A stretch of 64,000 nucleotides of DNA from an uncultured Chloroflexia bacterium. GTDB taxonomy: Bacteria; Chloroflexota; Limnocylindria; Limnocylindrales; CSP1-4. Position 1 is the stretch's first letter. Each line of letters opens with the position of its first letter. Below the pieces are notes generated by a model, which saw only the letters and a list, made by a program, of their open reading frames with translations, was not told the DNA's origin and did no database searches. This document shows positions 1-17,147 of the stretch, piece after piece. The DNA is taken from positions 672,001 through 736,000 of the forward strand of contig CAWFXA010000003.1 in assembly GCA_963819655.1 (NCBI GenBank), in the 5' to 3' direction. The position numbers were made by a program, and so were the translations under genes.

Positions 1-717
1 GCGCGCGATGTTGCTGGCGAAGGTGGCCACGATGACCCGCCCTTCGAGCGGCTCCATGATCTCGCGGAACGCCTCGCCGACGGTCCGCTCGGACGGGGTG
101 TAGCCCGGGTTCTCGGCGCGCGTCGAGTCGGACAGGAGGCAGATGACCCCTTCGGCGCCCATCCGTGCGAGCGTGGCGAAGTCGGACAGCTTGCCGTCGA
201 CCGGTGTGTGGTCGAACTTGAAGTCGCCCGTATGGACGATGGTCCCGATCGGCGTCCGGAGGGCGATGCCCATCGCATCCGGGATCGAATGGCCGACGCG
301 GAACGGGACGACATGGAACGGCCCGACGTCGATCTCGTCGCCGGGGTCGAGCGCGAGCACCGGATTGTTGTGGAGCTTGTGCTCCTTGATCTTGCTGCCG
401 AGGAGTCCGCGGGCCAGCGTGCTGGCATAGACGGGCACGCCCGGGAACTCGGGGAGCACGTACGGCAGCGCACCGACGTGGTCCTCGTGGGCATGTGTGA
501 TCAGGAAGGCCCTGACCTTTTCGCGGTTCTCCTTGAGGTAGGTGACATCGGGGATGACGAGGTCGATGCCGAACATCTCCTCGTCGGGGAACATGAGCCC
601 GCAGTCGATCACGACGATGTCGTCGCCGTACTCGAACACGTACATGTTCTTGCCGATCTCGCCCACCCCGCCGAGCGGGATGATGCGAAGCGGCACGTCT
701 GGGTCGGTGATGGTCAT
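1..717 (-). CDS. rnj: Ribonuclease J (5' part; runs off the window start)
   Basis: Hand translation gives MTITDPDVPLRIIPLGGVGEIGKNMYV..., ITHAHEDHVGA (metallo-beta-lactamase motif), HSIPDA and HTGDFKFD. ATG at 717 with AGGA upstream. Confidence 0.95.
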   Translation of the reverse strand, partial: MTITDPDVPLRIIPLGGVGEIGKNMYVFEYGDDIVVIDCGLMFPDEEMFGIDLVIPDVTYLKENREKVRAFLITHAHEDHVGALPYVLPEFPGVPVYASTLARGLLGSKIKEHKLHNNPVLALDPGDEIDVGPFHVVPFRVGHSIPDAMGIALRTPIGTIVHTGDFKFDHTPVDGKLSDFATLARMGAEGVICLLSDSTRAENPGYTPSERTVGEAFREIMEPLEGRVIVATFASNIAR

Positions 718-737
718 TCGGTTCCTATGGTTCGGTT

Positions 738-1442
738 CTAGAAGATGGTGAGTTGGTCGGTGGGGTCCGCCACCGTGTCGGCGTCCACCGCGGGGATCGT
801 CGCGGCGACCGAGACCGCCGTCTCGGCGGCGGCGAGGGTGCTCTGTCTGCGTCTCTCGCGGGCGTCGGTCAGCACGCGCGGGATGAGCGCGGCGTCCTCG
901 TAGCTCTCACGCTCGATCGATGGGGTACGGAGCGCGGCGGCGGGGTGATACATCGCCAAGACCGTCGCGTCGTGGGCTCCGGTCGCCGGGTCTGCGAGAC
1001 GGGTGGTGCCGTGTGCCTGCGAGATCCGCGCGCCGGGCATGAACCGGCCCATCGAGTGGCGGCCGAGCGTCACGATGACCGCAGGGTCGAGCGCCTCGAG
1101 CTGCCGCTGGAGATACGGCGCGCACGCGGCCACCTCGTCGGGCTCCGGGTCGCGGTTGCCGGGCGGACGGCACTTCACGATGTTGGTGATGAATACGTCC
1201 CCGCGCGTCCAGCCGATGTGGCCGAGCAGCTTCACCAATAGATCGCCGGCGCGGCCGACGAACGGCCGGCCCTGGAGATCCTCGTTCTGGCCCGGACCTT
1301 CGCCGACGAACAGAACCTCGGTCGACGGATCGCCCTCGCCAGGGACGGCGTTCGTGCGGGTGGTGTGGAGGCGGCAGCGCGTGCAGACGCGGACCTCCGC
1401 TGCGATCGCCTCGAGCGCCGCACGGCGCTCGGCCTCGGTCAC
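738..1442 (-). CDS. Uracil-DNA glycosylase, family 4 (Fe-S)
   Basis: CTRCRL, GEGPG, KCRPPGNRDP, CAPYL and HPAA motifs. GTG start overlaps the asd stop (GTGA). Confidence 0.93.
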   Translation of the reverse strand: MTEAERRAALEAIAAEVRVCTRCRLHTTRTNAVPGEGDPSTEVLFVGEGPGQNEDLQGRPFVGRAGDLLVKLLGHIGWTRGDVFITNIVKCRPPGNRDPEPDEVAACAPYLQRQLEALDPAVIVTLGRHSMGRFMPGARISQAHGTTRLADPATGAHDATVLAMYHPAAALRTPSIERESYEDAALIPRVLTDARERRRQSTLAAAETAVSVAATIPAVDADTVADPTDQLTIF

Positions 1443-2512
1443 GCGGGGGATCCGGCCGCGTCCCGTGTCGCGGCGGCCTTGACCCACCCGCGCTCGACCA
1501 GCAGCTCAGCCAGCTGGACGGCGTTGGTGGCGGCTCCCTTGCGGAGGTTGTCGCTGACGACCCAGAACGCCAGGCCTCGCCCGCCGTCGATCGATGGATC
1601 CTGGCGGACGCGCCCGACATAGATCTCGTCGGTGCCGGCCGCTTCGGTGGCCAGCGGATAGGTCGAGGTCGAGGGGTCGTCCTGGACGACGACGCCCGGT
1701 ACGGCGCCGAACAAGGTCCTGGCACGGTCCGGCGTGATCGGATCGGTCGTCTCGACGTGGACTGCCTCCGAATGCGCGACGAACACGGGGATGCGGACGG
1801 CCGTGCTCGAGATCCGCAGGTCCGGGAGGTGGAGGATCTTGCGGCTCTCCGTCACGACCTTCCACTCTTCCTTGGTGTAGCCGTTATCCAGGAACACATC
1901 GACCTGCGGGAGGGCGTTGAAGGCGATCTGGTGGGGGTAGACGCTCGCCTCGATCGGTTGGGCCTTGACATGTGCCTCGACCTGCGACTGCAGCTCGGTG
2001 ATCGCCTTGCCGCCGGTGCCGGAGACCGCCTGGTAGGTATCGACCACGACGCGCTCGAGGCCGACCGAATCGCGTAGAGCCATCAGGACCGGGACGAGCT
2101 GCATCGTCGAACAGTTCGGGTTGGCCACGATCCCTTCATGCCACCCCAGGTCGTCCGGATTGACCTGGCTGACGACGAGCGGCACAGAGGGATCCATGCG
2201 CCACGCGCTCGAGTTGTCGATGACGGTCGCGCCGCGCCTGGCGGCCTCTGGCGCCAGGGCCTTGGAGGCATCGCCACCCGCTGAGAAGAGCGCGATGTCG
2301 ACGCCGTCGAAGGCGTCGGGCGCGGCCTCACGGACGGGATGGCGGGTGCCGTTGACATCGAGCTCCGCGCCCGCGCTGCGGGCACTCGCGAGTAGCCGCA
2401 ACTCCCCGAACGGGAACTCCCGCTCGAGCAACATCCGGATCATCGTCCCGCCGACGACGCCGGTCGCGCCGACGACCGCGATCGTGAGTGGCTTGCTGGT
2501 CACCGAGGGCAT
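1439..2512 (-). CDS. asd: Aspartate-semialdehyde dehydrogenase
   Basis: VVGATGVVG, IDNSSAWRM, ANPNCST and DNLRKGAATNAVQ. Start trimmed to the ATG at 2512 (GGAG upstream). Confidence 0.96.
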   Translation of the reverse strand: MPSVTSKPLTIAVVGATGVVGGTMIRMLLEREFPFGELRLLASARSAGAELDVNGTRHPVREAAPDAFDGVDIALFSAGGDASKALAPEAARRGATVIDNSSAWRMDPSVPLVVSQVNPDDLGWHEGIVANPNCSTMQLVPVLMALRDSVGLERVVVDTYQAVSGTGGKAITELQSQVEAHVKAQPIEASVYPHQIAFNALPQVDVFLDNGYTKEEWKVVTESRKILHLPDLRISSTAVRIPVFVAHSEAVHVETTDPITPDRARTLFGAVPGVVVQDDPSTSTYPLATEAAGTDEIYVGRVRQDPSIDGGRGLAFWVVSDNLRKGAATNAVQLAELLVERGWVKAAATRDAAGSPA

Positions 2513-2550
2513 GGCTCCGCAGTGGTCTTGATCACGTCGGGCACGGCGGG

Positions 2551-2559
2551 AGTATAGCA
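2551..2559 (-). promoter_or_regulatory. Extended -10 element (TGcTATACT) upstream of asd
   Basis: TGn-TANNNT match 38 nt upstream of the asd start. The same pattern recurs upstream of rpsB, rplS and rpsO. Confidence 0.6.
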
Positions 2560-2669
2560 GCGAGTGTTGGCGGCACCCGACGTGGTCGGGCCGTTCGCCG
2601 ATCCCGGCGATGCGAGCATGATCCGCTACCTGCGTGACTGGCACGGGGCCGCCGCCTGGTGTCGGTCCG

Positions 2670-2826
2670 GATTCTGTCCCCACCAGACGATCGGGGCGTT
2701 CGGAGGCGATAACGGTGGGTTGATGCGGGTATTCGCTCACGGCCGAGCGTGTGGGAGGCGTTGGCGACCGGCCGTCGATGGCCTTATGGCACTCCAAGCG
2801 CCGGATCGTCTGCTGCCACCAGAATC
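2670..2826. repeat. Long imperfect inverted repeat (~45-bp arms)
   Basis: GATTCTG(2670)/CAGAATC(2820), CAGACGATC(2684)/GATCGTCTG(2804), GGAG/CTCC and ATAA/TTAT pair about one axis at ~2748. Confidence 0.7.
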
Positions 2827-2987
2827 GCGAGGCGCATTGGTCCGCCGTGTGCGCCTTGTGCGCCGTGCCGCCGATCGTCGCCGATCTCGACGGTGGCCGA
2901 CGCCGCTCTAACGCGGATCGCCGACCCACGACGATCGCCACGGCGCCGCACGCCAGCCCGAGCGTGAGCGGCACCAACCGTGACCCG

Positions 2988-3026
2988 AAAAGCAAGACCG
3001 GCCGGGCCCGGAGGCGCCGACCGGTC
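2988..3026 (-). terminator. Intrinsic terminator after pnp
   Basis: Minus-strand stem GACCGGTCGG...CCGGCCGGTC followed by TTGCTTTT, ~30 nt after the pnp stop. Confidence 0.7.
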
Positions 3027-3054
3027 GAATGTCGCTGGGGTTGTACCCGAGGAG

Positions 3055-5643
3055 TTAACTCCCGACAGGCTCCTTGGCGAGGTGTCGCTGCATCGCGGCC
3101 TTGCGCGACAGGTTGACGCGGCCCTGCCGGTCGATCTCGGTCACGACGACCATCACCTCGTCGCCGACGGACACGACGTCCTCGACGGTGGGCACGTGGT
3201 AGTCGGCGAGCTCGCCGATGCGGACCAGGCCCTCCTTGCCGGGCAGGATCTCGACGAACGCGCCGAAGCCCATGATCCGGGTCACCTTGCCGAGATACAG
3301 GGCGCCGATCTCGACCTCGCGGGTCAGGCTCTCGATCCACTGGATCGCCTTGCGCGAGTTCTCGCCGGACACGGCCGCGATCTCCACGGTGCCGTCGTCC
3401 TCGACGTTGATCTCGGTCTGGGTCTCTTCCTGGATCTTGCGGATCATCGATCCGCCCTTGCCGATGATCTCGCGGATCTTCTCGGGGTTGATCTTGATCG
3501 TGATGATGCGCGGCGCGAAGTCGCTCATCTCCACGCGGGCCTCTGGCAGCACCGCGGTCATCTTGTCGAGGATCTCGAGGCGGGCCACGAGAGCCTGCTT
3601 GAGACCGTCACGGATGATCGCCTCGCTGATGCCCTGGACCTTGATGTCCATCTGCAGGGCGGTCACGCCGTCCCGCGTGCCGGTCACCTTGAAGTCCATG
3701 TCCCCGATCGAATCCTCCTTGCCGAGGATGTCGGTCAGGACCACGAACCGGCCGTCGGGCTCGCTGATCAGGCCCATCGCCGCACCGGCGACCGGTGCCT
3801 TGATCGGCACGCCGGCGTCCATCAGCGCGAGGGTCGATCCGCACGTCGAGGCCATCGACGTCGAGCCATTCGACGTCACGCACTCGCTCACGAGGCGGAT
3901 GACGTACGGGAACTCATCGTGGTCCGGGAGGACAGGCACGAGTGCCCGCTCGGCGAGATGGCCATGGCCGATGTCGCGCCGGCTGGGCCCGCGCATCGGC
4001 TTGTTCTCGCCGGTGCTGTACGGCGGGAAGTTGTAGTGGTGGAGGTAGCGCTTCTCGGTCTCCGGGCTGATCGTGTCGATCCGCTGGACGTCCGAGGACG
4101 AACCGAGCGTCGCCACGGTCAGCGCCTGCGTATCACCGCGCGTGAACAGGCCGGAGCCATGGGCGCGTGGGACGAGTCCGACCTCCACGCTGATGGGCCG
4201 GATCTCGGTCAGACCGCGACCGTCGATGCGGATGCCCTCGTCGAGGACGAGCTGGCGGACGGTCTTCTTCTGGATCAGGTTGAACAGGCCCTTGCTGACA
4301 CGTGCGTCGCGGCGGGCGAACTCGAGCAGGCTGGCAGTGTCGCCACCCGTGCGCTGGGCGCGGACCGCGTCGGCGATCGCTGTGCGCAGGGTCGAGATCC
4401 GACCCGGCAGGTCCCTCGCGAACCAGATCAGGAGGTTCGCGGTCGCCTCGGCGTCCGGGAGCGCCCGATGGCTCTGGGTCAGGTCGACGCCGAAGAAGCG
4501 CGCCAGGTCCGGGAGCTTGTACGAGTCGCCGCCAGGGTAGCCCTCGCGGGCGATGATCAGGGTGTCGAGGTATGTGCCGGGCTGGAAGCGGAACCCGTCG
4601 CCCTTGGCCTCTTCCATGAAGGCGAGGTCGAAGCCGACGTTGTGCCCGACGACCTTGGCGTCGCCCACGAAGGCGAGCAGCTGATCGGCCGCCTCGCGGG
4701 GACTCGGCGCGCCCTTGACGTCCTTGTCGGTGATGCCGTGCATCTGGTTGCCGACGATGGGCCGGCCGGGGTTCACGAAGGTCGACCAGCGGTCAACGAT
4801 GTCCGTGCCCTTGACCTTGACCGCGGCGACCTCGAGGAGGTCGGCCATCTTCGGATCGGTGCCGGTCGTCTCCACGTCGATGACGACGAGCTCGCGCTTG
4901 TCGTCGGTCGCGGAGGCGAACTCGAGGACCGAGCTCGTCGGGGGCTCGAGGTACGGGACGCGCTTCGCCTTGCCGACCGCCTTCTGGATCTCCTCCTGGA
5001 GGTCCACGATCGGCTGCAGCGCGCGATGCCCGAACAGGATGGCCTCGGCCATGACGTCCTCGGGCAGCAGCTTGGCGCCGGCCTCGACCATCATGATCGC
5101 GTCGCGTGTGCCGGCGACGATCAGGTCGAGCTCGGAGTCGGCGAGTTGGCTGAAGGTCGGGTTGACGACGAACTCTCCGCCGATGCGCCCGACACGGACC
5201 GAGCCGATCGGCCCGTTGAACGGGATCTCACTGATCGTCAGGGCGGCTGATGCCGCGATCGTGCCGACCACGTCGGGGAGGTTCTCCTGGTCGGTCGAGA
5301 GGACCGTGATGACCAGCTGGACGTCGTCCTTGTAGCCCTCGGGGAAGAGGGGACGGATCGGTCGGTCCGTCTGGCGGGCCGCGAGGATCGCGTTCTCCGA
5401 TGGACGGGCCTCGCGCTTGATGAAGCCGCCCGGGATCTTGCCCGCGGCGTACATCCGCTCCTCGAAATCGACGGTGAGCGGGAAGAAGTCCAGCCCGGGG
5501 CGGGGCTCGGAACGGTTGGCAGTGCCGAGCACCATGGTGTCACCGTAGCGGACGGTGACGGAACCGCCGGCGAGCCGTGCAAGCTTGCCGGTTTCGATGG
5601 TCAGTGTGCGACCACCGAACTCTGTCTCGAAAGTCTGAGACAA
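3055..5643 (-). CDS. pnp: Polyribonucleotide nucleotidyltransferase (PNPase) with an inserted DEDDh 3'-5' exonuclease domain
   Basis: PH1 ([27 protein letters not shown]), PH2 ([33 protein letters not shown]), KH (IIGKGG) and S1 are present. Residues ~250-410 carry [15 protein letters not shown] and HRALPD. Lies downstream of rpsO; TTG start with GGAGG. Confidence 0.96.
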
Positions 5644-5766
5644 GGGAAACGATCCTCCTTGGTCGTGGAGGAGAAGTCGACCCGCGGGCGGGTCAGCCTG
5701 CTTCGCAGCCGGCGCCGTGTATGCGAGGACCCCGGGCGGTCTGCCCGAGGTCCGTGAGCGGCGACG

Positions 5767-6036
5767 CTAGCGGCGGAGTCCGAGCCGTCCGATGACGGTC
5801 CGGTAGCGCGCGCTGTCCTTCTTCATCAGGTATGCGAGAAGGCGGCGGCGCTGGCCGACGAGCTTGAGGAGGCCGCGACGCGAATGGTTGTCCTTCGGGA
5901 AGCGCCGGAGATGGTCCGTCAGGTCCTTGATCCGCTCGGTCAAGAGCGCGACCTGGACCTCTGGTGAACCGGTATCGCCATCGTTTGTGGCGTAGCCGGT
6001 GACGATCTCCTGCTTCAGTTCCCGCGCGAGCGGCAC
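5767..6036 (-). CDS. rpsO: 30S ribosomal protein S15
   Basis: [13 protein letters not shown]...[23 protein letters not shown] start with GGAGG. Confidence 0.97.
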
Positions 6037-6159
6037 TCGGTCCTCCGACACGATCTGTGTGCTTGTACCTTCCTGTTTGACCGGCGGATGGTAGCAGAGA
6101 GGCCTCGAACGCGCCATCGAGCGCCGGTCGGCCCGTCCGACCCCGGCTATCCTTCGCCC

Positions 6160-6723
6160 ATGCCGCGGCTGACGAGGATCTACACGAAGACCGGCGACGA
6201 GGGGATGACCGGGCTCGGTGGCGGCAGGCGCGTGGCGAAGGACTCTCCGCGGGTCCGCGCGTACGGCACCGTCGACGAGTTGAACTCCGCGATCGGGGTC
6301 GCCCTCGCGCTCGGGCTCACCGACCGGCTCACGAGCGAGCTCGGATCTATCCAGAACGAGCTGTTCGACCTCGGGTCGGACCTGTGCTGGCCCGAGGACG
6401 ACGAACGCCGCGCGCGTATCCCGACCGTGCAGCCAAAGCACGTCCGGAGGCTCGAGGCGCTCATCGATGAGCTCAACGAGGTGGTCGGTCCGCTGACGAA
6501 CTTCCTGCTCCCGGGCGGCGCACCGGGCGCTGCGCAGCTCCACGTCGCCCGCACGATCTGCCGGCGCGCTGAACGCGAGGCGATCACGCTGTCACATGAG
6601 GAGCCGATCGGACAGCTGGTCCTCCCCTATCTCAATCGGTTGTCGGACGCGCTGTTCGTCATGGCCCGTTTCGAGAACCACGAACGCGGCGTCGACGAGC
6701 CGCTCTGGCAGCCCGGGCTGTAG
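6160..6723 (+). CDS. ATP:cob(I)alamin adenosyltransferase, PduO type
   Basis: [29 protein letters not shown] and [13 protein letters not shown] lies 6 nt after TATCCT, so probably leaderless. Confidence 0.93.
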
Positions 6724-6726
6724 GCG

Positions 6727-7242
6727 TCAGGACGCGGCGCGCTCCGGCCAGCAGAACTCGGCGTCGACCATCGGTTCGCCGGGACCCGCCGCCCCCGGTT
6801 CGAATGGCGTCCGGAACGTGAACGCAGCGGGCGTCGGGCCGTCGCGCCGCAGACGCTCGAGCCGATCGAGGGCTTGGTCGAGGGTCGGGATCTGCCCGGC
6901 CGGTACCCACCACAGCACGAGGTGCGCTGTCGCCAGCCGCTCGAACCACGATCGCCGTTCGCGGAGCACGTGGACGTGAGCCGTCGTGTACGTGAACGCG
7001 CGAAGCGCCTCGAGCGACCTCCACACGCTCATGTTGATCAGGAACAGGTCATCCTCGGTCGACCGGATCGACGTCGCGTTCCCGGCGTCCGTCTGGAGCC
7101 GCCACACCATCCCCGGGTCGGCGTCAGCCAAGGCGTTGATGGGCTCGAGCTGAGCCACGAAGCCGGCGATAGCCGGCGACTCGACAGGTGCCAGCAGGCG
7201 ACCGACATTGAGCTGGGCCAGGTGCCACTGCGACTCGGTCAC
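6727..7242 (-). CDS. DUF3291-family protein
   Basis: HLAQLNVGRL, INALAD..PGMVWRLQ, NMSVW and LWWVPAG..PT pattern. GTGA overlap with the ribF stop. Confidence 0.8.
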   Translation of the reverse strand: MTESQWHLAQLNVGRLLAPVESPAIAGFVAQLEPINALADADPGMVWRLQTDAGNATSIRSTEDDLFLINMSVWRSLEALRAFTYTTAHVHVLRERRSWFERLATAHLVLWWVPAGQIPTLDQALDRLERLRRDGPTPAAFTFRTPFEPGAAGPGEPMVDAEFCWPERAAS

Positions 7243-7979
7243 GCCGTCAACTCCATGCTGATGGGTCCGTCCTCCACGGGCAGCGCGATCTCGACCGTAC
7301 CATCCCGCACGGTGACGCTCGTCGGCCGTCCATCGATGCGGGACGCGTACCGCCCGGGGGGAGGCATCGCCAGAGGCCACCCGAACGTGACGGCCCTGTC
7401 ACGGACCTGGCCGCGCAGGGAGACCGGTCGACCGAGCAGGCGCTCCGCCGTCGCCAGGTCCCCGGCGCCGATGGCCTCACGGATCGCGGAGCTGCTGACG
7501 GATGCACCATCGAGGACGAACGGCTCGACGACCACGAGATCGAACCCCTTCGTCTTGCCCAAAGCGGCGACGGCCTCCGGAGTGCCGCGGCGCTCGAAGC
7601 CGAACGCGGCGTCTGGCGTCATGAGGAGGCCGGCGAGCTCGGACCCGTTCCGGATCGCGGCGATGAAGTCGTCGTATGTCGTTCGCCGGACCGCCTCGTC
7701 GAAATGCTGTACCACGGTGACCTCGACGCCCAGCGCGGCGAGTCGCTCGAGGCGCTCGTCCGGGTGGACCAGCAATGGCGGCGCCGACCCGGTCAGGACC
7801 TCGTCGGGGTGGTGGTCGAAGGTGATCACCGTCGGCCGGGCGTGGCGCGCTTCCGCCTCGCGCACCAGGTGCTCGAGCAGGTAGACGTGTCCGCGGTGCA
7901 GGCCATCGAACACACCGATCACCGCAAATACCGGCCCATGCCCGGGACGAAGCCCCTCGACCCCGGCGACGACATCCAT
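7239..7979 (-). CDS. ribF: FAD synthetase (FMN adenylyltransferase) with truncated or degenerate riboflavin kinase module
   Basis: IGVFDGLHRGH, ITFDHHP, VSSSAIR and LLGRP; follows truB. Only 246 aa and has no PTAN motif. Confidence 0.85.
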   Translation of the reverse strand: MDVVAGVEGLRPGHGPVFAVIGVFDGLHRGHVYLLEHLVREAEARHARPTVITFDHHPDEVLTGSAPPLLVHPDERLERLAALGVEVTVVQHFDEAVRRTTYDDFIAAIRNGSELAGLLMTPDAAFGFERRGTPEAVAALGKTKGFDLVVVEPFVLDGASVSSSAIREAIGAGDLATAERLLGRPVSLRGQVRDRAVTFGWPLAMPPPGRYASRIDGRPTSVTVRDGTVEIALPVEDGPISMELTA

Positions 7980-8941
7980 CAGGCGGGCGTGCCGGCTCCG
8001 GCGGGTGCATCGGCCGCGACCAGCACCTTGTCTGGGGCCAGCCTGCCTGGTCCGGCGGGGATCGCGATCGCGACGAGGGTCCCGGCGGGACCTCGCAGGC
8101 GGTAGTGGTCCGCGCCGGCTGGAACTTGAGCCGAGGGTCGGACGAACTGGCCACGGGCCACGGCAGCGACCTCGTCGCGCGTGAGATCGACGACCGGGAA
8201 ACGGTCGAGCCCGGTGTCGATCGGTCGCAGGAGGGCCGTCAGCGACGACGGCCCGTCGGCGGCTGCCTCGCGGACGCGGTCGAGCTGGATCGCATCGGCC
8301 TCCGTGAATGGACCGGCCGCGGTCCTGCGCAGCGCCCCGAGGTATGCGGCGCTGCCGAGCCGCTCACCGAGGTCGCGCGCAAGGGCGCGGATATAGGTGC
8401 CGGCGGAACAGACGACGTCGACGATGGCGATCGGGCGCTCCGGTTCGGAATCGTCCCAGGAGACGAGCGTCAGGTCCTCGATGACGACCTCGCGGGTCTT
8501 CAATTCGAGCGTGCCGCCTGCACGGGCCACTGCGTAGGCACGCCGGCCACCGACCTTGATCGCGGAGAAGGCCGGCGGCCGCTGCGAGATGGTGCCCGTG
8601 AACTCGGGCAACGCGGCTTCGACGCGCGCGCGATCCGGCGCCGGACCGGTCGCCGGCGTCATCTCACCCTCGAGGTCATCGGTCGTCGATGACGCCCCGA
8701 AGCAGATCGTCGCCCGATACGCCTTGCGGTCGGCCAGATGGAATTCGACGATCCTGGTCGCCCGTCCGAGGAACACGGGCAGGACCCCCGATGCGAATGG
8801 GTCGAGCGTCCCGCCGTGGCCGACGCGCTTCGTGGCGGCCAGACGCCGGACGAGCCCGACGATGTCGTGCGAGGTCGGGCCGATCGGCTTGTCAATGACA
8901 AGGATCCCGTCGAGACCGGGGCCCAGCGAGGAGCGGGCCAT
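7979..8941 (-). CDS. truB: tRNA pseudouridine(55) synthase
   Basis: DKPIGPTSHD, GHGGTLDPFASG, CSAGTYIRALARD. Confidence 0.96.
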   Translation of the reverse strand: MARSSLGPGLDGILVIDKPIGPTSHDIVGLVRRLAATKRVGHGGTLDPFASGVLPVFLGRATRIVEFHLADRKAYRATICFGASSTTDDLEGEMTPATGPAPDRARVEAALPEFTGTISQRPPAFSAIKVGGRRAYAVARAGGTLELKTREVVIEDLTLVSWDDSEPERPIAIVDVVCSAGTYIRALARDLGERLGSAAYLGALRRTAAGPFTEADAIQLDRVREAAADGPSSLTALLRPIDTGLDRFPVVDLTRDEVAAVARGQFVRPSAQVPAGADHYRLRGPAGTLVAIAIPAGPGRLAPDKVLVAADAPAGAGTPA

Positions 8942-8942
8942 G

Positions 8943-9962
8943 TCAGCGAGCGACCGCCGCGGCGGACCGGCGGGCCTCGGCGAGCACGGCGTCGCGTGCG
9001 CGGTCCATGGGGAGCGGCACGGTCGCGCCGGCCGCCCGGGCATGCCCGCCGCCCCCGAAGATCCCGGTCAGGACGGTCGCGTCTACCCCACCCGGCTTGG
9101 TGCGCACGCTGATACGAGTCCCGTCCGCCGCCTCCTTGAACAGGATCGCCACCTCGGCATCCTCGGCCTGGGCGAGCAGGTCGATGATGCCCTCGGCGTG
9201 CGGCGGTTGGGTGCCGGTCGCCACGAGATCCGCGTCGAACAGCGTCGATGCGACGACGCGGCCCGCATCGAAGCTCTCGAGCCGGTCGAGGACGCGGCCG
9301 AACAGCCGCAGCTGGACCGCCGGCTTTGAGCGATACAGGCGACGCGAGATGTCCGACAGCGGCGCACCCGCGTCCACCAGCGCGGCGGAGACCGCGAGCG
9401 TTCGCGGCGTGGAATTCGGATGGGCGAAGGTCGCGGTGTCCATGACGATCCCTGCCATCAGGGCGGTCGCCAATGCCCCGCCGGCGGCATCGAGCGGGAC
9501 GCCCAGTCTGACGGCGAGCAACGTGACCATCTCGCAGGTCGCTGCGGCCGCAGGGTCGATCCAGTCGGCTTCTCCCGCAGCCTCGTTCGAGGCGTGGTGG
9601 TCGATGACGACACGTGCAAGGCGGTCGAACAGGTCCCGATGTCTTTCGCCGACCGCCCCCACGCGCTCCAGCGTCGCGCAATCGGAGATCACGAGCAGGT
9701 CGTAGTCAGCGTCCGGGTCGGGGTCGGTCCGAAACCGGTCGACGCCCTCGAGGAAGTCGTACAGCGGCGGGACGGGGTCCGTGCACACCGGGTCGGCCGT
9801 GCCGCCGAACGCCTCGACGAGATGGACGATCGCAAGCGTAGCGCCCAGGGTGTCGGCATCGGGGTTCTCGTGGCTGACGGCGAGCACCCGTCGCGCGTTG
9901 CGGATCCGCTCGACCACGACATCGGGCACGGCGTCGAGGTAGACCGCCAGGTCGACGGTCAT
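8943..9962 (-). CDS. nrnA: DHH-DHHA1 phosphoesterase (NrnA-like nanoRNase/pAp phosphatase)
   Basis: HENPDAD, IDHH, DTATF and GGGGHARAAG; located between rbfA and truB. Confidence 0.9.
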   Translation of the reverse strand: MTVDLAVYLDAVPDVVVERIRNARRVLAVSHENPDADTLGATLAIVHLVEAFGGTADPVCTDPVPPLYDFLEGVDRFRTDPDPDADYDLLVISDCATLERVGAVGERHRDLFDRLARVVIDHHASNEAAGEADWIDPAAAATCEMVTLLAVRLGVPLDAAGGALATALMAGIVMDTATFAHPNSTPRTLAVSAALVDAGAPLSDISRRLYRSKPAVQLRLFGRVLDRLESFDAGRVVASTLFDADLVATGTQPPHAEGIIDLLAQAEDAEVAILFKEAADGTRISVRTKPGGVDATVLTGIFGGGGHARAAGATVPLPMDRARDAVLAEARRSAAAVAR

Positions 9963-10465
9963 CGGTGCTTCCGTGGGGCGGGTCGGCCCGTCGGTCTGCC
10001 GCGACGGCGCGGCTTGGGCGGCACGACGGCCGATGGAGGCTCCTCCGCCGAATCGCCCTCGTGATGCACGCGGGCGACGGGTGTCGGCAGCGTCTCGCCG
10101 AGCGGCAAGTCGCTCTCAGGTGCCGTTCCTGCACTGAGCTCATCGAGCAGGTGCAGGACACGCGTACCGCGCTCCGCCGCATCGTCGAGCTCGACGTGCA
10201 GGTCCGGGATCCGCTTCAGCCGCAGGTTCCGGCCAAGTTCACGCCGCACGAACGGCATCGCCCGCGCGAGCGCCGCGATCGTCTGGGTCCGCTCCTTCGG
10301 CTGGCCGATGACGCTGACCCACACCTTGGCGTGCCGCAGGTCGGGCGTCGTCTCGACCTTTGTGATGGTCGCGAACCCGATCCGCGGATCCGCGACCTCC
10401 CGAGTGACGATGACCCCGATCTCCTGCCTCAGCAGCTCGTCGATCCGGTCAGTACGCTGACTCAC
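9959..10465 (-). CDS. rbfA: Ribosome-binding factor A with C-terminal tail
   Basis: DPRIGFATIT.V..TPDLRHAKVWVS and LKRIPDL; follows infB. Confidence 0.94.
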   Translation of the reverse strand: MSQRTDRIDELLRQEIGVIVTREVADPRIGFATITKVETTPDLRHAKVWVSVIGQPKERTQTIAALARAMPFVRRELGRNLRLKRIPDLHVELDDAAERGTRVLHLLDELSAGTAPESDLPLGETLPTPVARVHHEGDSAEEPPSAVVPPKPRRRGRPTGRPAPRKHR

Positions 10466-10471
10466 CGGGCA

Positions 10472-12379
10472 TCAAGCGGTCGCGACGCGTGACACCGTCT
10501 GGCTGGTGAAACATTCGATGATGTCGCCTTCCTCGAGGTCCGTGAACGATGCGAGGCCGATGCCGCACTCGTAGTTCGCCTGGACTTCGCGGACGTCGTC
10601 GCGGAACCTGCGGAGCGACTCGATCCGGTCGGTGGCGATGACCTTGCCTCCGCGCCAGACACGCGCGCCGCCGCGGACGATACGTCCGTCGGTGACATAC
10701 GACCCGGCGATGACCGTGTTCTTGCCGACTCGGATGACCTGGCGGACCTCCGCGCGGCCCTCGACGACCTCGATGATCTCCGGCTCGAGGAGGCCCTTGA
10801 GTGCCGCTTCGATGTCGTCGGTCAGCTTGTAGATGATGTCGTAGAGGCGGACATCGACCCCTTCGGCCTCGGCCGCCCGTCGGGCGGTGTCGGTGATCGA
10901 CGTGCTGAAGCCGACGACGATCGCATTCGACGCCGCGGCCAGCATGATGTCGTTGTCGGTGATGTCGCCGGCGGCCTCATGCAGGATGTTGATGCGGACC
11001 TCGTCCTGATCGAGCTGCTCGAGTGCATGGGTGATGGCACCGAGCGAGCCGGACACGTCCGACTTGAGGATGATCCGCAGCTCCTTGGCCTGGCCGGCCT
11101 GGATCTGGCGATACAGGTCCTCCAGGGTCGCGCGACCGCTTCCTTCGCCGCCCTTTGCGGCGAGCTGGCCCTTGCGCGCGTCGACCAGGGCGCGGGCAGC
11201 CTTGTCATCGGCCACGACGCGCAGGATGTCGCCGGCCTCCGGGACCTCCGAGAGCCCGAGCACGACGACGGCGCTGGCGGGGCCCGCCTGCTTGACGCGC
11301 TTGCCGCGATCGTTCTCGAGCGCCCGGACGCGACCGAACGTCTCGCCGACGACGATGATGTCGCCGACATTGAGCGTGCCGGTCTGGACCAGGGCGGTCG
11401 CGACGGCGCCGCGGTTCTTGTCCATCTGCGCCTCGACGATCGTGCCGATCGCGGGGCGGTCCGGATTCGCCTTGAGCTCCTGCAGGTCTGCGACCAGCAG
11501 GACCATCTCGATCAGCTCGTCGAGGCCCTGGCGGGTCTTCGCCGAAACGGGCACGAGCGGGACTTCGCCGCCGTACTCCTCGATGACGATGCCGGCCTCG
11601 GTCAGCTCGGTCTTCACCCGGGTTGGGTCGGCGTCCGGCTTGTCGATCTTGTTGAGTGCGATGATGATCGGCACCTTCGCGGCCTTGGCGTGGCTGATCG
11701 CCTCGAGCGTCTGGGGCATCACGCCGTCGTCGGCGGCAACCACGATGATCGCGATGTCGGTGACGCGGGCTCCGCGCGCACGCATCGCCGTGAACGCCTC
11801 ATGACCGGGCGTGTCCAGAAAGACGACGCGCTTGCCGTCGTGGACGACCTCCGACGCGCCGATGTGCTGGGTGATGCCACCCCGCTCCCCCGCTGCGACC
11901 TCGGTCGAGCGGAGCGCATCGAGCAGGCTTGTCTTGCCGTGGTCGACGTGGCCCATGACCGTCACGATCGGTGCACGCGGCTGGAGCTTCTTCGGGTCGT
12001 CCTCCTCGAAGAGGACTTCCTTGGTCGCCTCGGGCGCGGCGCCGTCGGTCTCGCCGTCGGGGCCGGTCCCGTTCGTCGACGCGGCGACGGTCTCCGCCAC
12101 CTCGTAGCCGAGCTCGGACGCGACGAGCGACGCCGTGTCGCGGTCGATCAGCTGGTTGATCGTCGCGAAGATGCCGCTCTTGATCAGCTCGCGGATGACA
12201 TCCGCGACATTGACCGAGAGGAGGTCGGCGAGCTCCTTGACGGTGATGGTGCCGGGCAGCTCGATCGCCCCGCGCTCGCGGGGATCGACGACCTGCACGG
12301 GCGATGTGAACGCGTTGTCGCGGCGCGGCGGCTTGCGCGGCCCGCGACGGCCGCGGGTGCCGCTCCTACTCCTGGCCAC
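10472..12379 (-). CDS. infB: Translation initiation factor IF-2 (short form)
   Basis: [33 protein letters not shown] and ECGI. Confidence 0.97.
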
Positions 12380-12698
12380 GGGCTCCTCCTTCGATGGTGT
12401 TCGTGGTTGTGGCCCCCGGGTCGACGCTCGCGAGGAACGCCGCCGGAAGCGGGATCTCCAGCGCCCGTCTCAGGGCGCCTTTCTTGATGGCGATGGAAAG
12501 ACAGTCGGTGTCGTGACAGACGTACGCCCCGCGGCCCGCGAGTCGCCCCGTCGGATCGACCACGACCTCACCCGCCGGTGTCCGGACGATCCGCTGCAGG
12601 TCGCGCTTTGCACGCGACGTGCGGCACGCCACGCACGTCCGCGTCGGGACGCGTCGCGGCGTCTCGGCCGTAGCCGCGCGTCCGGCGGGCGCGGCTAC
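12366..12698 (-). CDS. ylxR: YlxR/RnpM-family RNA-binding protein (start uncertain, probably non-canonical GTA)
   Basis: PTRTCVACR...L.RIV...GRGAYVC...C; sits between nusA and infB. Confidence 0.85.
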   Translation of the reverse strand, partial: VAAPAGRAATAETPRRVPTRTCVACRTSRAKRDLQRIVRTPAGEVVVDPTGRLAGRGAYVCHDTDCLSIAIKKGALRRALEIPLPAAFLASVDPGATTTNTIEGGARGQE

Positions 12699-14185
12699 GG
12701 CGCCACCTCCTCGGCCGGTTCGGTGGCGGGCGAAGGTTCGTCGGCGGGTGCCGGTTCGGTAGCCGGCGCCTCGACGGCGGCACCATCGTCGGAGTCGGTC
12801 GAGGCGGTCGAGGCGGCCGCTGCGGCCTTCTTCGTCGTTCGCTTCGGCTTGGCGGGCGCCTCCGCGGTCACGCCGTCGGTCGACGCGGTCGTACCGTTCG
12901 CCGACGCGGTCGTACCGTCTGCCACCTCCGCCGCCTCCGCCGCCTCCGCCGCCTCTGCCGCGGCCGCGGCCTTCTTGGTGACACGCTTCGGCTTCGCGGC
13001 CGCGGCCCGCTTCGTCGGGGCGGCCTCCTCGGTGGCGGGCTCGCCTCCGACCGCGGCTGCGGCATCGGCCGGAGAGGCGGCGCCGTCGGTGCTCCCGCCG
13101 TCGATCGCGGCCGGTTGCGTCGCCTCCGCCTCGGCGGCGGCCTTCGCCTCGGCGACCGAGACGTCGCTCCGGATGTCGATCCGCCAGCCGGTCAGGCGAG
13201 CGGCGAGCCGCGCGTTCTGCCCCTCGCGGCCGATGGCCAGCGACAGCATCCGCTCGGGCACGGTGACCGACGCGATGCGCTTCTCCTCGTCGATGTCGAC
13301 CGACAGGACCTGGGCAGGGCTCAACGCATTGGCCACGAACACGGCCGGGTCGTCGCTCCACGGGATGACGTCGATCTTCTCGCCGGCCAGCTCGGCCACG
13401 ACGGCCTGGACACGGGCGCCCCGCTGTCCGACCGTCGCTCCGACCGGGTCGAGCCCATCCTGGCGAGACGAGACCGCGACCTTCGAGCGGCTGCCCGCCT
13501 CGCGCGCGATGGCCTTGATCTCGACCGTCCCGGAATGGATCTCGGGCACCTCGAGCTCGAACAGACGGCGCAGGAAGCCCTTGTGGGTGCGGCTGACGAA
13601 GATCTGTGGACCACGCACCGAGCGCCGCACCTCGAGCACGAACGCCTTGACGTTCTGGCCGATGCGGTAGTGCTCGAGCGCGCTCTGCTCGGTCGTGGCC
13701 AGGATCGCTTCCGTGTTCTTGCCGACGTCGAGGATGATCGCGCGCGGCTCGACCCGGTTGACGGTCCCGGTGATCAGCTCGCCCTCGCGGCTCGCGAACT
13801 GGTCGAAGACCTGGTCGCGCTCGACCTCGCGGATGCGCTGCAACACGATCTGCTTGGCGGTCTGGGCACCGATGCGCCCGAAGACGTCGCCATCGAGCTG
13901 CTCGGTCTCGATCACATCACCCGGCTTGGCGTTGGGGTCGTGCTTGCGGGCGTCCTCGACGGTGATCTGGGTCAGTTCGTCCTCGATCTCTTCGACGACC
14001 AGGCGGGCGCGGTACACGCGGATGCGGCCGGACTCGGCATCGATCTGGACATGGATGTCCTCGTCCCCAGCCACGCGACGATATGCGGACTGGATCCCGT
14101 CCTCCACCGCCCCGATGAGCTGTTCGCGCGAGACCTGCTTCTCCGCATTCAGCTGAAGGAGGGCGCCCACGAAGTCTCGACTCAC
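12695..14185 (-). CDS. nusA: Transcription factor NusA with long Ala/Glu/Lys-rich tail
   Basis: FGRIGAQTAKQ, LFELEVPEI, AREAGSRSKVAV and LAIGREGQNARLAARLTGWRIDI. GTG start with GGAGG. Confidence 0.96.
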   Translation of the reverse strand: MSRDFVGALLQLNAEKQVSREQLIGAVEDGIQSAYRRVAGDEDIHVQIDAESGRIRVYRARLVVEEIEDELTQITVEDARKHDPNAKPGDVIETEQLDGDVFGRIGAQTAKQIVLQRIREVERDQVFDQFASREGELITGTVNRVEPRAIILDVGKNTEAILATTEQSALEHYRIGQNVKAFVLEVRRSVRGPQIFVSRTHKGFLRRLFELEVPEIHSGTVEIKAIAREAGSRSKVAVSSRQDGLDPVGATVGQRGARVQAVVAELAGEKIDVIPWSDDPAVFVANALSPAQVLSVDIDEEKRIASVTVPERMLSLAIGREGQNARLAARLTGWRIDIRSDVSVAEAKAAAEAEATQPAAIDGGSTDGAASPADAAAAVGGEPATEEAAPTKRAAAAKPKRVTKKAAAAAEAAEAAEAAEVADGTTASANGTTASTDGVTAEAPAKPKRTTKKAAAAASTASTDSDDGAAVEAPATEPAPADEPSPATEPAEEVAP

Positions 14186-14229
14186 GATCGCCTCCCTTCC
14201 ACGCCAGATGCCAAGCAACGACCGGTCCG

Positions 14230-14257
14230 AAAAAAATACGTGGGGGTCACCCACGTA
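14230..14257 (-). promoter_or_regulatory. Leader hairpin plus U-tract (rimP/nusA-leader-like attenuator)
   Basis: Minus strand reads TACGTGGG-TGACC-CCCACGTA-TTTTTTT, between a TATACT -10 (14283-14288) and the nusA start. Confidence 0.7.
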
Positions 14258-14381
14258 ACGGAGCGGCCGTTCAGTTGTGCGAAGTATACACCCGGACGCG
14301 TGGACGAGTCGAAGCACGGCCTGCTCGTGCTAGCCTACCGCTCCGTCCGAGCAAACGCGTGGACATGAGGGGAGTCGACCG

Positions 14382-15866
14382 TTGGCCGAGCCGACCGCGC
14401 CCACGCTGCCCCTGATCCAGCGCACCGAGGTCGATGGCGTCCCGCTCCTGTGGGCCGACGCACCAGGCCAGCCGATCCTGGCCCTTCACTTCCGCGTAGG
14501 CCGGGCCGACGAACGCGCCTGGGAAGGCGGCCTGACCCACCTCGTCGAGCATCTCGCGATGGGCACCATCGGCCAGCCCCGCTACGAGCACAACGCGTGG
14601 GTCGATACGACACGGACCGTGTTCTATGCCAACGGGTCGAAGGTCGATGTCGCCTCATTCGGGGGTGCCATCACGACGGCGCTTGCCACCCTGCCCACCG
14701 ACCGGTTGGAGCACGAGCGCTCCATCCTGAAGCGGGAAGCCGCAGGCCAGAGCGCGGGAATCAGCGACAGCCATCTGAACTTCAGGTTCGGGATGGCGGG
14801 TTTCGGGTTGTCGGGTCAGCCGGAATTCGGGCTCGGGGCGGTGACCGCCGGGCGGGTCGCCGAGTGGGCGCGGGAGCGGTTCGGACGCAGCAATGTCATG
14901 GCATTCATGACCGGTCCCCCGCCGGCCGATCTCCGTCTGCAGCTGAACGAGGGCGCCGCGTTCCCGAACCCGCGCCCGATCCCGGAATCGACGGTCCCGC
15001 TGCCGTCGCACGTGAGGACACCCAGCGGCGGTGTCGCGATCGGCTTCCTGCTCGAGCGCAAGATCGGCGCCGGAACGTTCCTCGCGCTCTACCACCGGAT
15101 GCTGCGCCAGCGCCTTCGGCTGGAGCGCGGGCTGATCTACGACGTGTTGGCCGACTACCAGCCCCTCGACGCGACGTGGGCGGCTGCGCTCGTCGGCGGC
15201 GAGTGCGATCCCACGCACGCCCAGGAGGTCGCGGACATCGCGCTGGACGAACTTAGCCGTCTGATGAACGGCGAGGTCGACCAGGCTGAGGTCGACGCCG
15301 AGACCGACGACTTCCGGCAGTCGATCGAGGATCCGACGCAGGTCGCCGGGCTGCTCGACTCGATGGTCCGTGACGAGCTTGCCGGCATGCCGTTCCGGAC
15401 CGCCGAGGATCGCTATCGCGAGCAGCAGGCGACGACGGCCGAACACATCGCCGGCCACGCCGCCCAGGCACGTCGCTCGCTCATCCTGCTCGCCGACGTC
15501 GAGCAGCACACCAGCGACATCGTCGCCTATCCGATGTCGTCGACCGACCTGGTGGCCGGCCGTGAGGTCAAGCCGCTGCTGTCGGTCCTCGGCTTCGGAC
15601 CGAAGGTCCGGCTGACCATCGGCCCGGACGGCGTGTCGCTGCGCGGCAAGGACGGCTCGCTGGCGACCGTGCGCTACGCCGACTGCGTGGTGCTGGAGCG
15701 GCCCAAGGAGGATGAGCTGGTCATGTGGGGCCGCGACCTGTCACGGGTCTACGTGCCGGCGGCCTTCTGGCGGGGCGGCGAGCAAGTCCTGGCCGAGATA
15801 GAAGCTGCCGTGCCGCCCGAGATCGTCGTCCGCGACACGTTCAGCCACGACTACATCGAGGACTGA
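14382..15866 (+). CDS. M16 (inverzincin)-family peptidase-like protein with extra C-terminal domain
   Basis: GLTHLVEHL (HxxEH), NAWV..T.T.FY and ERSILKRE. TTG start after GAGGGGAG. Confidence 0.75.
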   Translation: MAEPTAPTLPLIQRTEVDGVPLLWADAPGQPILALHFRVGRADERAWEGGLTHLVEHLAMGTIGQPRYEHNAWVDTTRTVFYANGSKVDVASFGGAITTALATLPTDRLEHERSILKREAAGQSAGISDSHLNFRFGMAGFGLSGQPEFGLGAVTAGRVAEWARERFGRSNVMAFMTGPPPADLRLQLNEGAAFPNPRPIPESTVPLPSHVRTPSGGVAIGFLLERKIGAGTFLALYHRMLRQRLRLERGLIYDVLADYQPLDATWAAALVGGECDPTHAQEVADIALDELSRLMNGEVDQAEVDAETDDFRQSIEDPTQVAGLLDSMVRDELAGMPFRTAEDRYREQQATTAEHIAGHAAQARRSLILLADVEQHTSDIVAYPMSSTDLVAGREVKPLLSVLGFGPKVRLTIGPDGVSLRGKDGSLATVRYADCVVLERPKEDELVMWGRDLSRVYVPAAFWRGGEQVLAEIEAAVPPEIVVRDTFSHDYIED

Positions 15867-15902
15867 CGGCCTGTCTCGGGCCGACGACGCGCAGGCGCGG
15901 GG

Positions 15903-17147
15903 TCAGCGCGCGGCCGGGACCGCGGGTCCCGGGAACCGCTGCGCGACGTAGTCCTCGAGGATGACGATGAACTCATCGACGAGCCCCTCGCCGCGGAGCG
16001 TGCGATCGAGGCGGCCGTCGATGAACACCGGCGCGACCGGCTCCTCGAAGGTACCGGGCAGGCTGATGCCGATGTCGGCGTGCTTCGATTCGCCCGGGCC
16101 GTTGACGACGCAGCCCATCACCGCCACGCGTAGGTCTTCGGCGCCCGGATGCGTCTCCTTCCACTCCGGCATCCGGTCCTTGAGGTAGGCCTGGATCTGT
16201 TGGGCCATCTCCTGGAAGAACGTCGACGTGGTTCGACCGCAGCCCGGGCAGGCCGAGACCTGGGGCAGGAACGAGCGCAGACCCATCGACTGGAGGACCT
16301 GCTGGGCGATCTCGACCTCGCGCTCGCGCGGGGCGCCCGGCTCCGGGGTGAGCGAGACGCGGATCGTGTCTCCGATCCCCTCGTGCAGCAGGATCGCCAG
16401 GCCGGCCGTCGACGCGATGACGCCCTTGTCGCCCATCCCGGCCTCGGTCAGGCCGAGGTGGAGCGGGTAGTCGCAGCGGGCGGCGAGCAGGCGGTAGACG
16501 TCGACGAGGTCGCGAACGCCACTGACCTTGGCGCTGATGATGATCCGGTCGTGGCCGAGCCCGGTCGCCTCCGCGAGCTCGGCCGAGCGGAGCGCCGACT
16601 GGAGCATCGCCTCGATCATGACGTCGCGCGAGTCCCGCGGCTCGGATAGCTGGGCATTCGCGTCCATGAGCTCGGTCAGGATCGCCTGGTCGAGCGAGCC
16701 CCAGTTGACACCGATGCGGACCGGCTTGTCGTTGTCGATCGCGACCTTGACGATCGTCGCGAAGTGCTCGTCGTGGCGCTTGGCGCCGACGTTGCCGGGG
16801 TTGATCCGGTATTTGGCGAGCAGGCTGGCCGCTTCGGGATACTCCACGAGGAGCTTGTGCCCGTTGTAGTGGAAGTCCCCGATGATCGGGACATCGACCC
16901 CCAGGCCGCGGACCTTGCGGACCATCTCGGGCACGGCCGCTGCGGCTTCCTCGGTGTTCACGGTCACGCGGACGAGCTCGGACCCTGCGTGGGCCAGACG
17001 CGCGACCTGGATCGCGGTCGCGTCCGGATCGGCGGTGTCCGTGTTCGTCATCGACTGGACCACGATCGGATGGGCGCCACCGACCGGGACGCCGCCCACA
17101 TCGACGGTGACGGAGTTCCTGCGCACTGGGGCCTCGGCCTGGGTCAA
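15903..17147 (-). CDS. ispG: HMB-PP synthase IspG
   Basis: [28 protein letters not shown] and [10 protein letters not shown]. Confidence 0.96.

Follow-up and report, generated by a model that had tools for sequence, protein, structure and literature searches.

Polynucleotide phosphorylase (PNPase) is among the best-studied enzymes of RNA decay, and every solved or characterised form is phosphorolytic only. In the eukaryotic RNA exosome, a PH-like ring that is itself catalytically dead is teamed with the hydrolytic nucleases Rrp44 and Rrp6, the latter DEDD-type. Canonical PNPases (TIGR03591; Protein Data Bank (PDB) entries 7ogk, 4aim, 3gcm, 1e3p and 8wxf) consist of a first RNase PH domain (PH1), a helical domain, a second RNase PH domain (PH2), and KH and S1 domains, in an rpsO-pnp gene context. 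DEDDh exonuclease domains of one subfamily occur at the N-terminus of the DinG exonuclease-helicases of Firmicutes, Actinomycetota and Chloroflexota (8zef; Bacillus subtilis DinG; TIGR01407/NF005981) and, nested inside the PHP domain, in PolC (2p1j, 9qpc). PNPase is also reported to work alongside separate hydrolases, namely RNase D in the Caulobacter crescentus degradosome and REXO2 in human mitochondria (PMC4245959, PMC7261184). Here we describe a pnp gene in a 64,000-nucleotide stretch of DNA (hereafter the window; contig CAWFXA010000003.1, positions 672,001 to 736,000) from an uncultured Chloroflexia bacterium. Judged from its sequence, the product is a genuine housekeeping PNPase that bears a complete, nested DEDDh domain.

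This protein shares the domains and gene context of canonical PNPases, but differs by a DEDDh domain of ~155 amino acids (aa) plus connectors, nested where the helical domain begins; the listed solved chains (494–730 aa) lack this addition. Unlike DinG, it has no helicase, the exonuclease domain is internal rather than N-terminal, and the host enzyme is an RNA phosphorylase; the absence of a helicase domain rejects an identification of the protein as DinG, to which the exonuclease domain alone is related. PolC is similar in that its domain, of the same subfamily, is likewise nested, but in another host enzyme. The exosome likewise combines a PH ring with a DEDD-superfamily hydrolytic 3'-5' nuclease, which is an analogy of function and not of membership. 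Lastly, RNase D in C. crescentus, human REXO2 and the exosome nucleases are separate polypeptides; in the fusion, by contrast, the hydrolase is nested covalently within the chain, and the site of phosphorolysis looks intact.

The pnp open reading frame (ORF) comprises 862 codons plus a stop and lies on the minus strand at 3055–5643, with a TTG start and a coding part of 3058–5643. In Pfam searches, the 862-aa protein matched RNase_PH twice, RNase_PH_C twice, KH_1 (residues 714–771) and S1 (777–848). Between the PH halves, residues 253–405 matched PF00929 (RNase_T) over the complete profile (1–164 of 164; E = 1.1e-28; 101.3 bits, the cut-off being 24 bits). The NCBIfam PNPase model TIGR03591 scored 947.9 bits (curated cut-off 525.05 bits) in two stretches parted by the insert. 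The features of the gene are as follows.

3055..5643, minus strand: PNPase with a nested DEDDh domain (pnp); Pfam and NCBIfam
4951..5643, minus strand: residues 1–231, first RNase PH domain, RNase_PH_C (144–208) and first linker helix (210–223), ending in GKAKRVP; Pfam and model
4888..4950, minus strand: residues 232–252, N-terminal connector that holds a short conserved helix (237–247) and an SVLxF motif; alignment and AlphaFold2
4429..4887, minus strand: residues 253–405, DEDDh (RNase_T/DnaQ-like) exonuclease domain; PF00929, NCBIfam and PDB sequence matches
4861..4884, minus strand: Exo I, VIDVETTG, residues 254–261 (D256, E258); alignment
4627..4647, minus strand: Exo II, GHNVGFD, residues 333–339 (D339); alignment
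4453..4470, minus strand: Exo III, HRALPD, residues 392–397 (H392, D397); alignment
4219..4428, minus strand: residues 406–475, alpha-helical domain, apparently retained; AlphaFold2, PF03726 and length comparison
3544..4218, minus strand: residues 476–700, second (catalytic) RNase PH domain, with RRDIGHG 555–561, NGSTSM 592–597 and D644/D650/K652 invariant; Pfam and alignment
3100..3504, minus strand: KH (714–771) and S1 (777–848) RNA-binding domains; Pfam

A sequence-only reading of the window had placed a DEDDh insert at 4414–4896, which equals residues 250–410 exactly, and had described PH1, PH2, KH and S1 as intact. The order it anticipated (RNase_PH - RNase_T - RNase_PH - KH - S1) was the order found by Pfam, and all the motifs and residue numbers that it quoted (D256, E258, D339, H392 and D397) are correct in the translation. 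The flanking landmarks are the KAKRVP motif at residues 225–230 and the motif at the start of PH2 at residues 462–476.

Both active sites, PH2 and DEDDh, look intact on alignment. Ten PH2 residues (R555, R556, H560, N592, G593, S594, S596, D644, D650 and K652) are invariant across 37 sequences of fusions and canonical sisters; these would be the counterparts of the catalytic phosphate- and metal-site residues of the Escherichia coli enzyme. Each of the five DEDDh residues is conserved in 24/24 aligned fusions, drawn from three families, and in 120/120 database proteins. The motifs across the fusions read D-x-E-T-T-[G/A/S], H-[N/S/A]-[V/L]-x-F-D and H-R-[A/G]-x-x-D-A. Within the fusion clade, inserts are 45–60% and cores 70–84% identical, and in 12 pairwise comparisons the ratio of nonsynonymous to synonymous substitution rates (dN/dS) was 0.10–0.50 for the exonuclease domain and 0.03–0.19 for the core. 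The insert is under purifying selection, more relaxed than that on the core.

The PNPase helical domain is reported to regulate access of phosphate and nucleoside diphosphate (NDP) to the active site (PMC6181284) and, in human PNPase, to touch the RNA substrate (PMC12685370). The sequence-only reading had supposed that the insert largely replaces this domain. Instead, the domain appears to be kept. From the GKxK/GKPK motif to RxDGR/RPDGR at the start of PH2, the fusion has ~85 non-exonuclease residues in addition to the 153-residue exonuclease domain, compared with ~78 residues in total in canonical sisters. An AlphaFold2 monomer model (37-sequence alignment; mean predicted local distance difference test score (pLDDT) 81.7; predicted template modelling score 0.74) placed the short helix 237–247 first and the alpha/beta exonuclease domain (251–383) next. 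The final exonuclease helix then ran unbroken from 394 to 432 (pLDDT 88–94) and was followed by helices 436–447 and 451–469 and then PH2; over residues 391–470, pLDDT was 84–94. Three modelled helices follow the insert, and outside the exonuclease domain the linker has a length that matches canonical sisters; on these grounds we take the helical domain to be retained. Its Pfam profile, PF03726, matched weakly (residues 449–476, profile positions 53–80 alone, with a score exactly at the 24.6-bit cut-off). According to the model, the nuclease is nested at the N-terminal edge of the helical domain and appears rigidly coupled to it on the C-terminal side. The best Foldseek matches were all canonical PNPases (30–42% identity; chains of 494–730 residues) without the insert.

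The composition of the insert is native: the proportion of G or C at third codon positions is 0.95 in the insert, and 0.89 and 0.93 in the flanking core. A repeat search around the insert returned nothing convincing, merely short imperfect matches. The G/C-ending codons and the lack of repeat scars remarked upon by the sequence-only reading were thus borne out. Both junctions are bridged by contigs of one metatranscriptome library (X4) and of two DNA runs, X1 and X3, which come from different studies; the same reading had asked for reads that span them. The junction at ~4414–4430 is spanned by records 1, 17 and 25, and that at ~4888–4950 by records 7, 21, 30 and 32. The runs compared with the window are listed as metagenomes from sediment, soil and freshwater sediment, and a contig from the RNA library is no proof of transcription. 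One X1 contig links 4233 to 5079, omitting 845 bases; its shorter side is 22 letters at 85% likeness, and we treated it as the PNPase of another organism or as a chance match.

We surveyed the occurrence of the fusion in metagenome-type assemblies of the class and phylum. Three families carry the fusion: f1, which includes the window's own genome, f2, which belongs to the same order, and f4; two sister families, f3 and f5, are without it. With residues 230–450 as the insert query, the insert was found in frame in 23/24 same-genus genomes, the single genome without a match being 65% complete, and in 16/16 f2 genomes. A junction-spanning query (residues 140–420) was searched against 251 Chloroflexota genomes and matched over its full length (1–279 or more) in 29/29 genomes of the window's class (14 from f1, with the window's included, one from f2 and 14 from f4). 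In the 222 genomes of other classes, among the matches listed, PNPase covered at most query positions 1–141 and the DEDDh part lay in separate ORFs; a further 402 weaker rows stand beyond the matches listed. In the class sample, 148 of 151 genomes showed a match, including 44/44 for f1, 6/6 for f2 and 49/50 for f4.

The matches in f3 and f5 are of a different kind. At all six loci fetched, the DxETTG motif stood at the N-terminus of an ORF of ~890–1040 aa without PNPase motifs, and the PNPases of these families were canonical (5/5), matching residues ~5–236 and ~453–851 alone in open frames of 737–814 aa. A class-wide fusion is therefore ruled out: f3 and f5 have a canonical PNPase together with a DEDDh-DinG helicase. 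The helicase domain Helicase_C_2 (PF13307) was detected in 47/49 f3 genomes and in the single f5 genome, and in 1/44 f1, 0/6 f2 and 1/50 f4 genomes. When a complete f3 DinG served as the query, the PNPase insert alone was matched in 5/5 fusion genomes (query 5–176), and its helicase part found no match in any of these five. The window's own genome (three contigs, 91% complete) has no PF13307 match and a single PF00929 match, which is the pnp insert; PF00929 is single in the fusion genomes tested, G000 and G043. The insert is the main or only PF00929 domain of the fusion genomes. Collectively, the fusion and the DinG helicase are complementary in distribution, and the fusion families are without DinG. 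The class, phylum and Helicase_C_2 tallies include genomes flagged unpublished (G131, G156, G122, G139, G126, G102, G145, G216, G343 and G326), but none of the individual claims made here depends on these genomes.

Several further observations were made in these genomes. In three of them (G001, G007 and G034) the insert is divided over two reading frames, for which a frameshift, a sequencing error or a pseudogene could be the cause, and in G038 it is divided between two contig ends. Small f2 genomes (1.0–1.4 Mb) have an extra stand-alone DEDDh ORF (frames of 191–328 aa; 29–38% identity to the insert), seen in G025 (C2:301392-301853) and ten others; some of these matches contain in-frame stops (G025, G032 and G034). 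At an f3 locus (L015 2519–2620, genome G044), the DinG-type ORF opens 10 codons before the Exo I aspartate with no ATG, GTG or TTG upstream of the motif, the first lying after it at 2591; its start codon is probably a rare one (CTG, ATA or ATC), or else the annotated protein is without Exo I. The family PF01612 (DNA_pol_A_exo1) gave matches of 27.3 and 22.6 bits, too weak to interpret, in ORFs of ~960–1130 aa from f3 (G055:C3:52468-52674 and G044:C8:444111-444314), and none in the three fusion-clade genomes tested.

Database searches returned at least 1500 matching proteins, of which the best 120 all combined PF00929 with RNase_PH. The NCBI labels of these 120 read Chloroflexota or Candidatus Limnocylindrales. 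Many fusion proteins carry the JGI label 'DNA polymerase III epsilon subunit family exonuclease', which could be misread as the presence of DnaQ. The top 150 of 30424 representatives included no PNPase-DEDDh fusion from outside the class, in a search that would miss any fusion built on a remoter DEDDh domain; the nearest Atlas clusters were all Chloroflexota, again with no fusion outside the class. NCBIfam holds no model specific for the architecture. The sequence-only reading knew of no description of such a protein; in agreement with this, we found none in solved PNPase structures and no account of a PNPase with a DEDD domain in the searchable literature, outside which lie subscription journals, ~1.7 million PubMed Central articles and supplements.

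Next, we compared the insert with other DEDDh domains. Its best NCBIfam matches were the PRK07883 DEDD exonuclease (1e-40), DinG (NF005981; 7.8e-37) and the PolC exonuclease region (5.8e-35), and its nine PDB sequence matches were to the PolC exonuclease (2p1j and 9qpc), S. aureus-type DinG (8zef; 1.6e-17), DnaQ, Cas2-DEDDh and epsilon. Neither RNase T nor Orn stood among the nine PDB matches or the top 25 of the 66 NCBIfam matches, and an RNase T/Orn-type insert was rejected on the strength of the DinG, PolC, PRK07883 and epsilon matches. By these comparisons, the insert is a DnaQ/DinG/PolC-type DEDDh domain, that is, of the DNA-enzyme type, in agreement with the fold segments pointed out by the sequence-only reading.

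An exhaustive search of representatives gave 30424 matches, 43 of them at 1e-30 or below and mostly fragments of the same fusion. Among the hosts of this domain type were the DinG N-terminus, the PolC PHP interior, a tripled form with GIY-YIG, a form after VRR-NUC and one nested in RecJ. In P0270 (746 aa), a RecJ-like protein with DHH, DHHA1 and RecJ_OB, the DEDDh domain is nested in the gap that separates DHH from DHHA1; in P0136 (1045 aa), GIY-YIG and UVR come after a tandem array of three DEDDh domains; P0184 (736 aa) combines FAN1_HTH, VRR_NUC and a C-terminal DEDDh domain. Eight further representatives (715–750 aa), seen by their C-terminal exonuclease domain alone, cluster with P0184 in the larger of two trees.

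Both trees were drawn from the same 154 extracted domains: one of 145 rows, after removal of nine fragmentary rows, and a careful one of 51 chosen rows. In the 145-row tree, the PNPase inserts formed one clade (Shimodaira-Hasegawa-like approximate likelihood-ratio test support 98) adjoining DinG-type domains (support 85–87). In the 51-row maximum-likelihood (ML) tree, the insert clade had support of 99/98 and the grouping of inserts with DinG-type domains 80/80. These neighbouring domains belong to RNase_T+DEAD+Helicase_C_2 proteins. The insertion site is identical in all fusions compared. On this phylogeny and shared site, the insert is of single origin, acquired once. In an approximately unbiased (AU) test, a clade uniting the inserts with the class's own DinG exonuclease was not rejected (p 0.28). 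A PolC-type origin is not favoured by the ML tree, and it was not rejected by the AU test either. The AU tests do not discriminate between donors, and we therefore do not claim the tree as proof of a DinG origin.

The gene neighbourhood is that of a housekeeping pnp. The cluster reads nusA-ylxR-infB-rbfA-(DHH/DHHA1 NrnA-like)-truB-ribF ... rpsO-pnp-asd, with two genes of note.

5770..6060, minus strand: rpsO (ribosomal protein S15), directly upstream of pnp as in the classical rpsO-pnp pair
8946..9962, minus strand: NrnA-like DHH/DHHA1 gene, between rbfA and truB in the cluster of pnp

A cobalamin adenosyltransferase gene (6088–6720, plus strand) breaks the ribF ... rpsO-pnp run, and a long spurious ORF (5767–6543, minus strand) overlaps it. 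Rfam gave no match at gathering score in window positions 1–16000. NrnA-like and RecJ-like DHH proteins were present in 5/5 class genomes tested, with the fusion or without it. The RNB domain of RNase II/R was found in 0/151 class genomes, while a control search detected it in 11/14 reference genomes; PNPase may therefore be the only processive 3'-5' exoribonuclease of the class.

With moderate confidence, we favour the reading of this protein as a two-site 3'-5' exonuclease with a phosphorolytic PH2 site and a hydrolytic DEDDh site. The KH and S1 domains together with the ring would bind single-stranded 3' ends, and the PH2 site would remove nucleotides by phosphorolysis. The DEDDh head, with a two-metal hydrolytic site, would remove nucleotides without phosphate. 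If the protein trimerises like other PNPases, there would be three hydrolytic heads per trimer. The head would be active and trim the 3' ends of single-stranded nucleic acid. The dual-chemistry nuclease proposed in the sequence-only reading is plausible. The head is most likely the lineage's relocated or replacement DinG-type nuclease; as a DinG-like domain in genomes from which DinG has disappeared, it probably takes over the substrates of DinG as well. In published accounts, B. subtilis DinG is described as preferring single-stranded DNA (ssDNA) and RNA-DNA hybrids over single-stranded RNA, S. aureus DinG is reported to degrade single-stranded RNA with Mg2+ (cited in PMC12525004), and B. subtilis PNPase is reported to degrade ssDNA in the 3'-5' direction and to act in DNA repair, including that of double-strand breaks (PMC2709576, PMC3241651).

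A number of points weigh against the two-site reading and its DinG ancestry. The activity, the substrates, the geometry of the trimer and any cooperation of the two sites are all matters that we infer. The case for DinG ancestry comes chiefly from the complementary occurrence of fusion and helicase, and a single historical event lies behind that pattern: as that event took place in related genomes, the complementarity counts as a single correlated observation and not as statistics. Two genomes depart from the pattern, with Helicase_C_2 in a 2041-aa ORF of an f1 genome (G121) and in a contig-edge fragment of an f4 genome (G075), and the assemblies surveyed, all of metagenome type, are 59–99% complete. 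In the 51-row tree, the immediate sister of the inserts has a bootstrap of 17, and its named members are DinG proteins of Actinomycetota, not of Chloroflexota. The AU test did not reject a clade that unites the inserts with the PolC exonuclease (p 0.46; log-likelihood difference 1.26). Lastly, the absence of RNase II/R cannot alone explain the fusion, because the non-fusion families share it.

Among the alternatives to the two-site reading, we considered whether the head might be purely a genome-maintenance nuclease that keeps the DNA and R-loop job of the DinG exonuclease, with PNPase, itself active at DNA ends, as a merely convenient scaffold and no part in RNA decay. The DinG-type domain, the loss of DinG from the fusion clade, the substrate preference reported for B. 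subtilis DinG and the reported role of B. subtilis PNPase in double-strand-break repair are consistent with this proposal. However, the host gene keeps its rpsO-pnp translation and RNA context, no DNA-repair genes lie nearby, the reported activity of S. aureus DinG extends to RNA, and a class without RNase II/R could clearly make use of an enzyme that hydrolyses RNA. On balance, we regard an exclusive role in genome maintenance as unlikely.

The role preferred by the sequence-only reading was that of a nanoRNA finisher, in which the DEDDh head serves as a built-in Orn and degrades the oligoribonucleotides of 2–5 nucleotides that PNPase leaves. The minimal 5' product of human PNPase is reported to be a trinucleotide (PMC12685370), the helical domain that bears the head lies next to the active site, and the single PF00929 match in G000 and G043 means that no other Orn-type protein was found in the fusion genomes tested. 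This proposal is nevertheless weakened by the NrnA-like gene, which lies in the cluster of pnp here and is present in all five class genomes tested irrespective of the fusion. Furthermore, the best matches of the insert are not to Orn or RNase T, and the sister families without the fusion cope without the insert; we therefore judge a nanoRNA role to be quite unlikely.

That the insert evolves faster than the core, with lower identity and higher dN/dS, might suggest a structural or regulatory domain that is no longer a nuclease, for example one that gates phosphate or NDP access or binds nucleic acid. The five catalytic residues are, however, kept in every aligned fusion and database protein counted above, among inserts down to ~45% identical, and dN/dS is below 1, which makes an inactive domain very improbable. 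An assembly chimera or a recent mobile insertion (an intein or a transposon) has a negligible chance of being correct and is refuted, as nothing in its favour was found and it is contradicted by the same in-frame junctions in well over 100 independent assemblies and >120 database proteins, by bridging contigs from three independent runs, by native composition and by the lack of repeat scars.

A bolder form of the two-site reading, which we put forward only tentatively, is that the protein is a single-chain bacterial counterpart of the exosome principle. An active phosphorolytic PH ring would carry three rigidly mounted DEDDh heads beside its active sites, having arisen as DinG was dismantled and its nuclease moved to PNPase. 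The sites would exchange 3' ends and, whether or not phosphate is present, clear RNA, the RNA of R-loops and ssDNA ends. If true, in a lineage that has neither RNase II/R nor DinG, RNA decay would be directly tied to the easing of conflicts between replication and transcription.

The carriers form one branch of the uncultured Chloroflexota of soil and freshwater, and are Limnocylindrales by the NCBI labels of near relatives. The finding probably records the move of a domain from a DNA helicase to an RNA phosphorylase, with consequences for annotation. A natural PNPase with a second, hydrolytic site would suit the study of how labour is divided between phosphorolysis and hydrolysis. It would bear on the limits of PNPase at short oligonucleotides, at structured ends and at low phosphate, and on the link between PNPase and the DNA and R-loop roles of DinG. 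For the lineage itself, which is without RNase II/R, phosphate-independent trimming by PNPase would matter.

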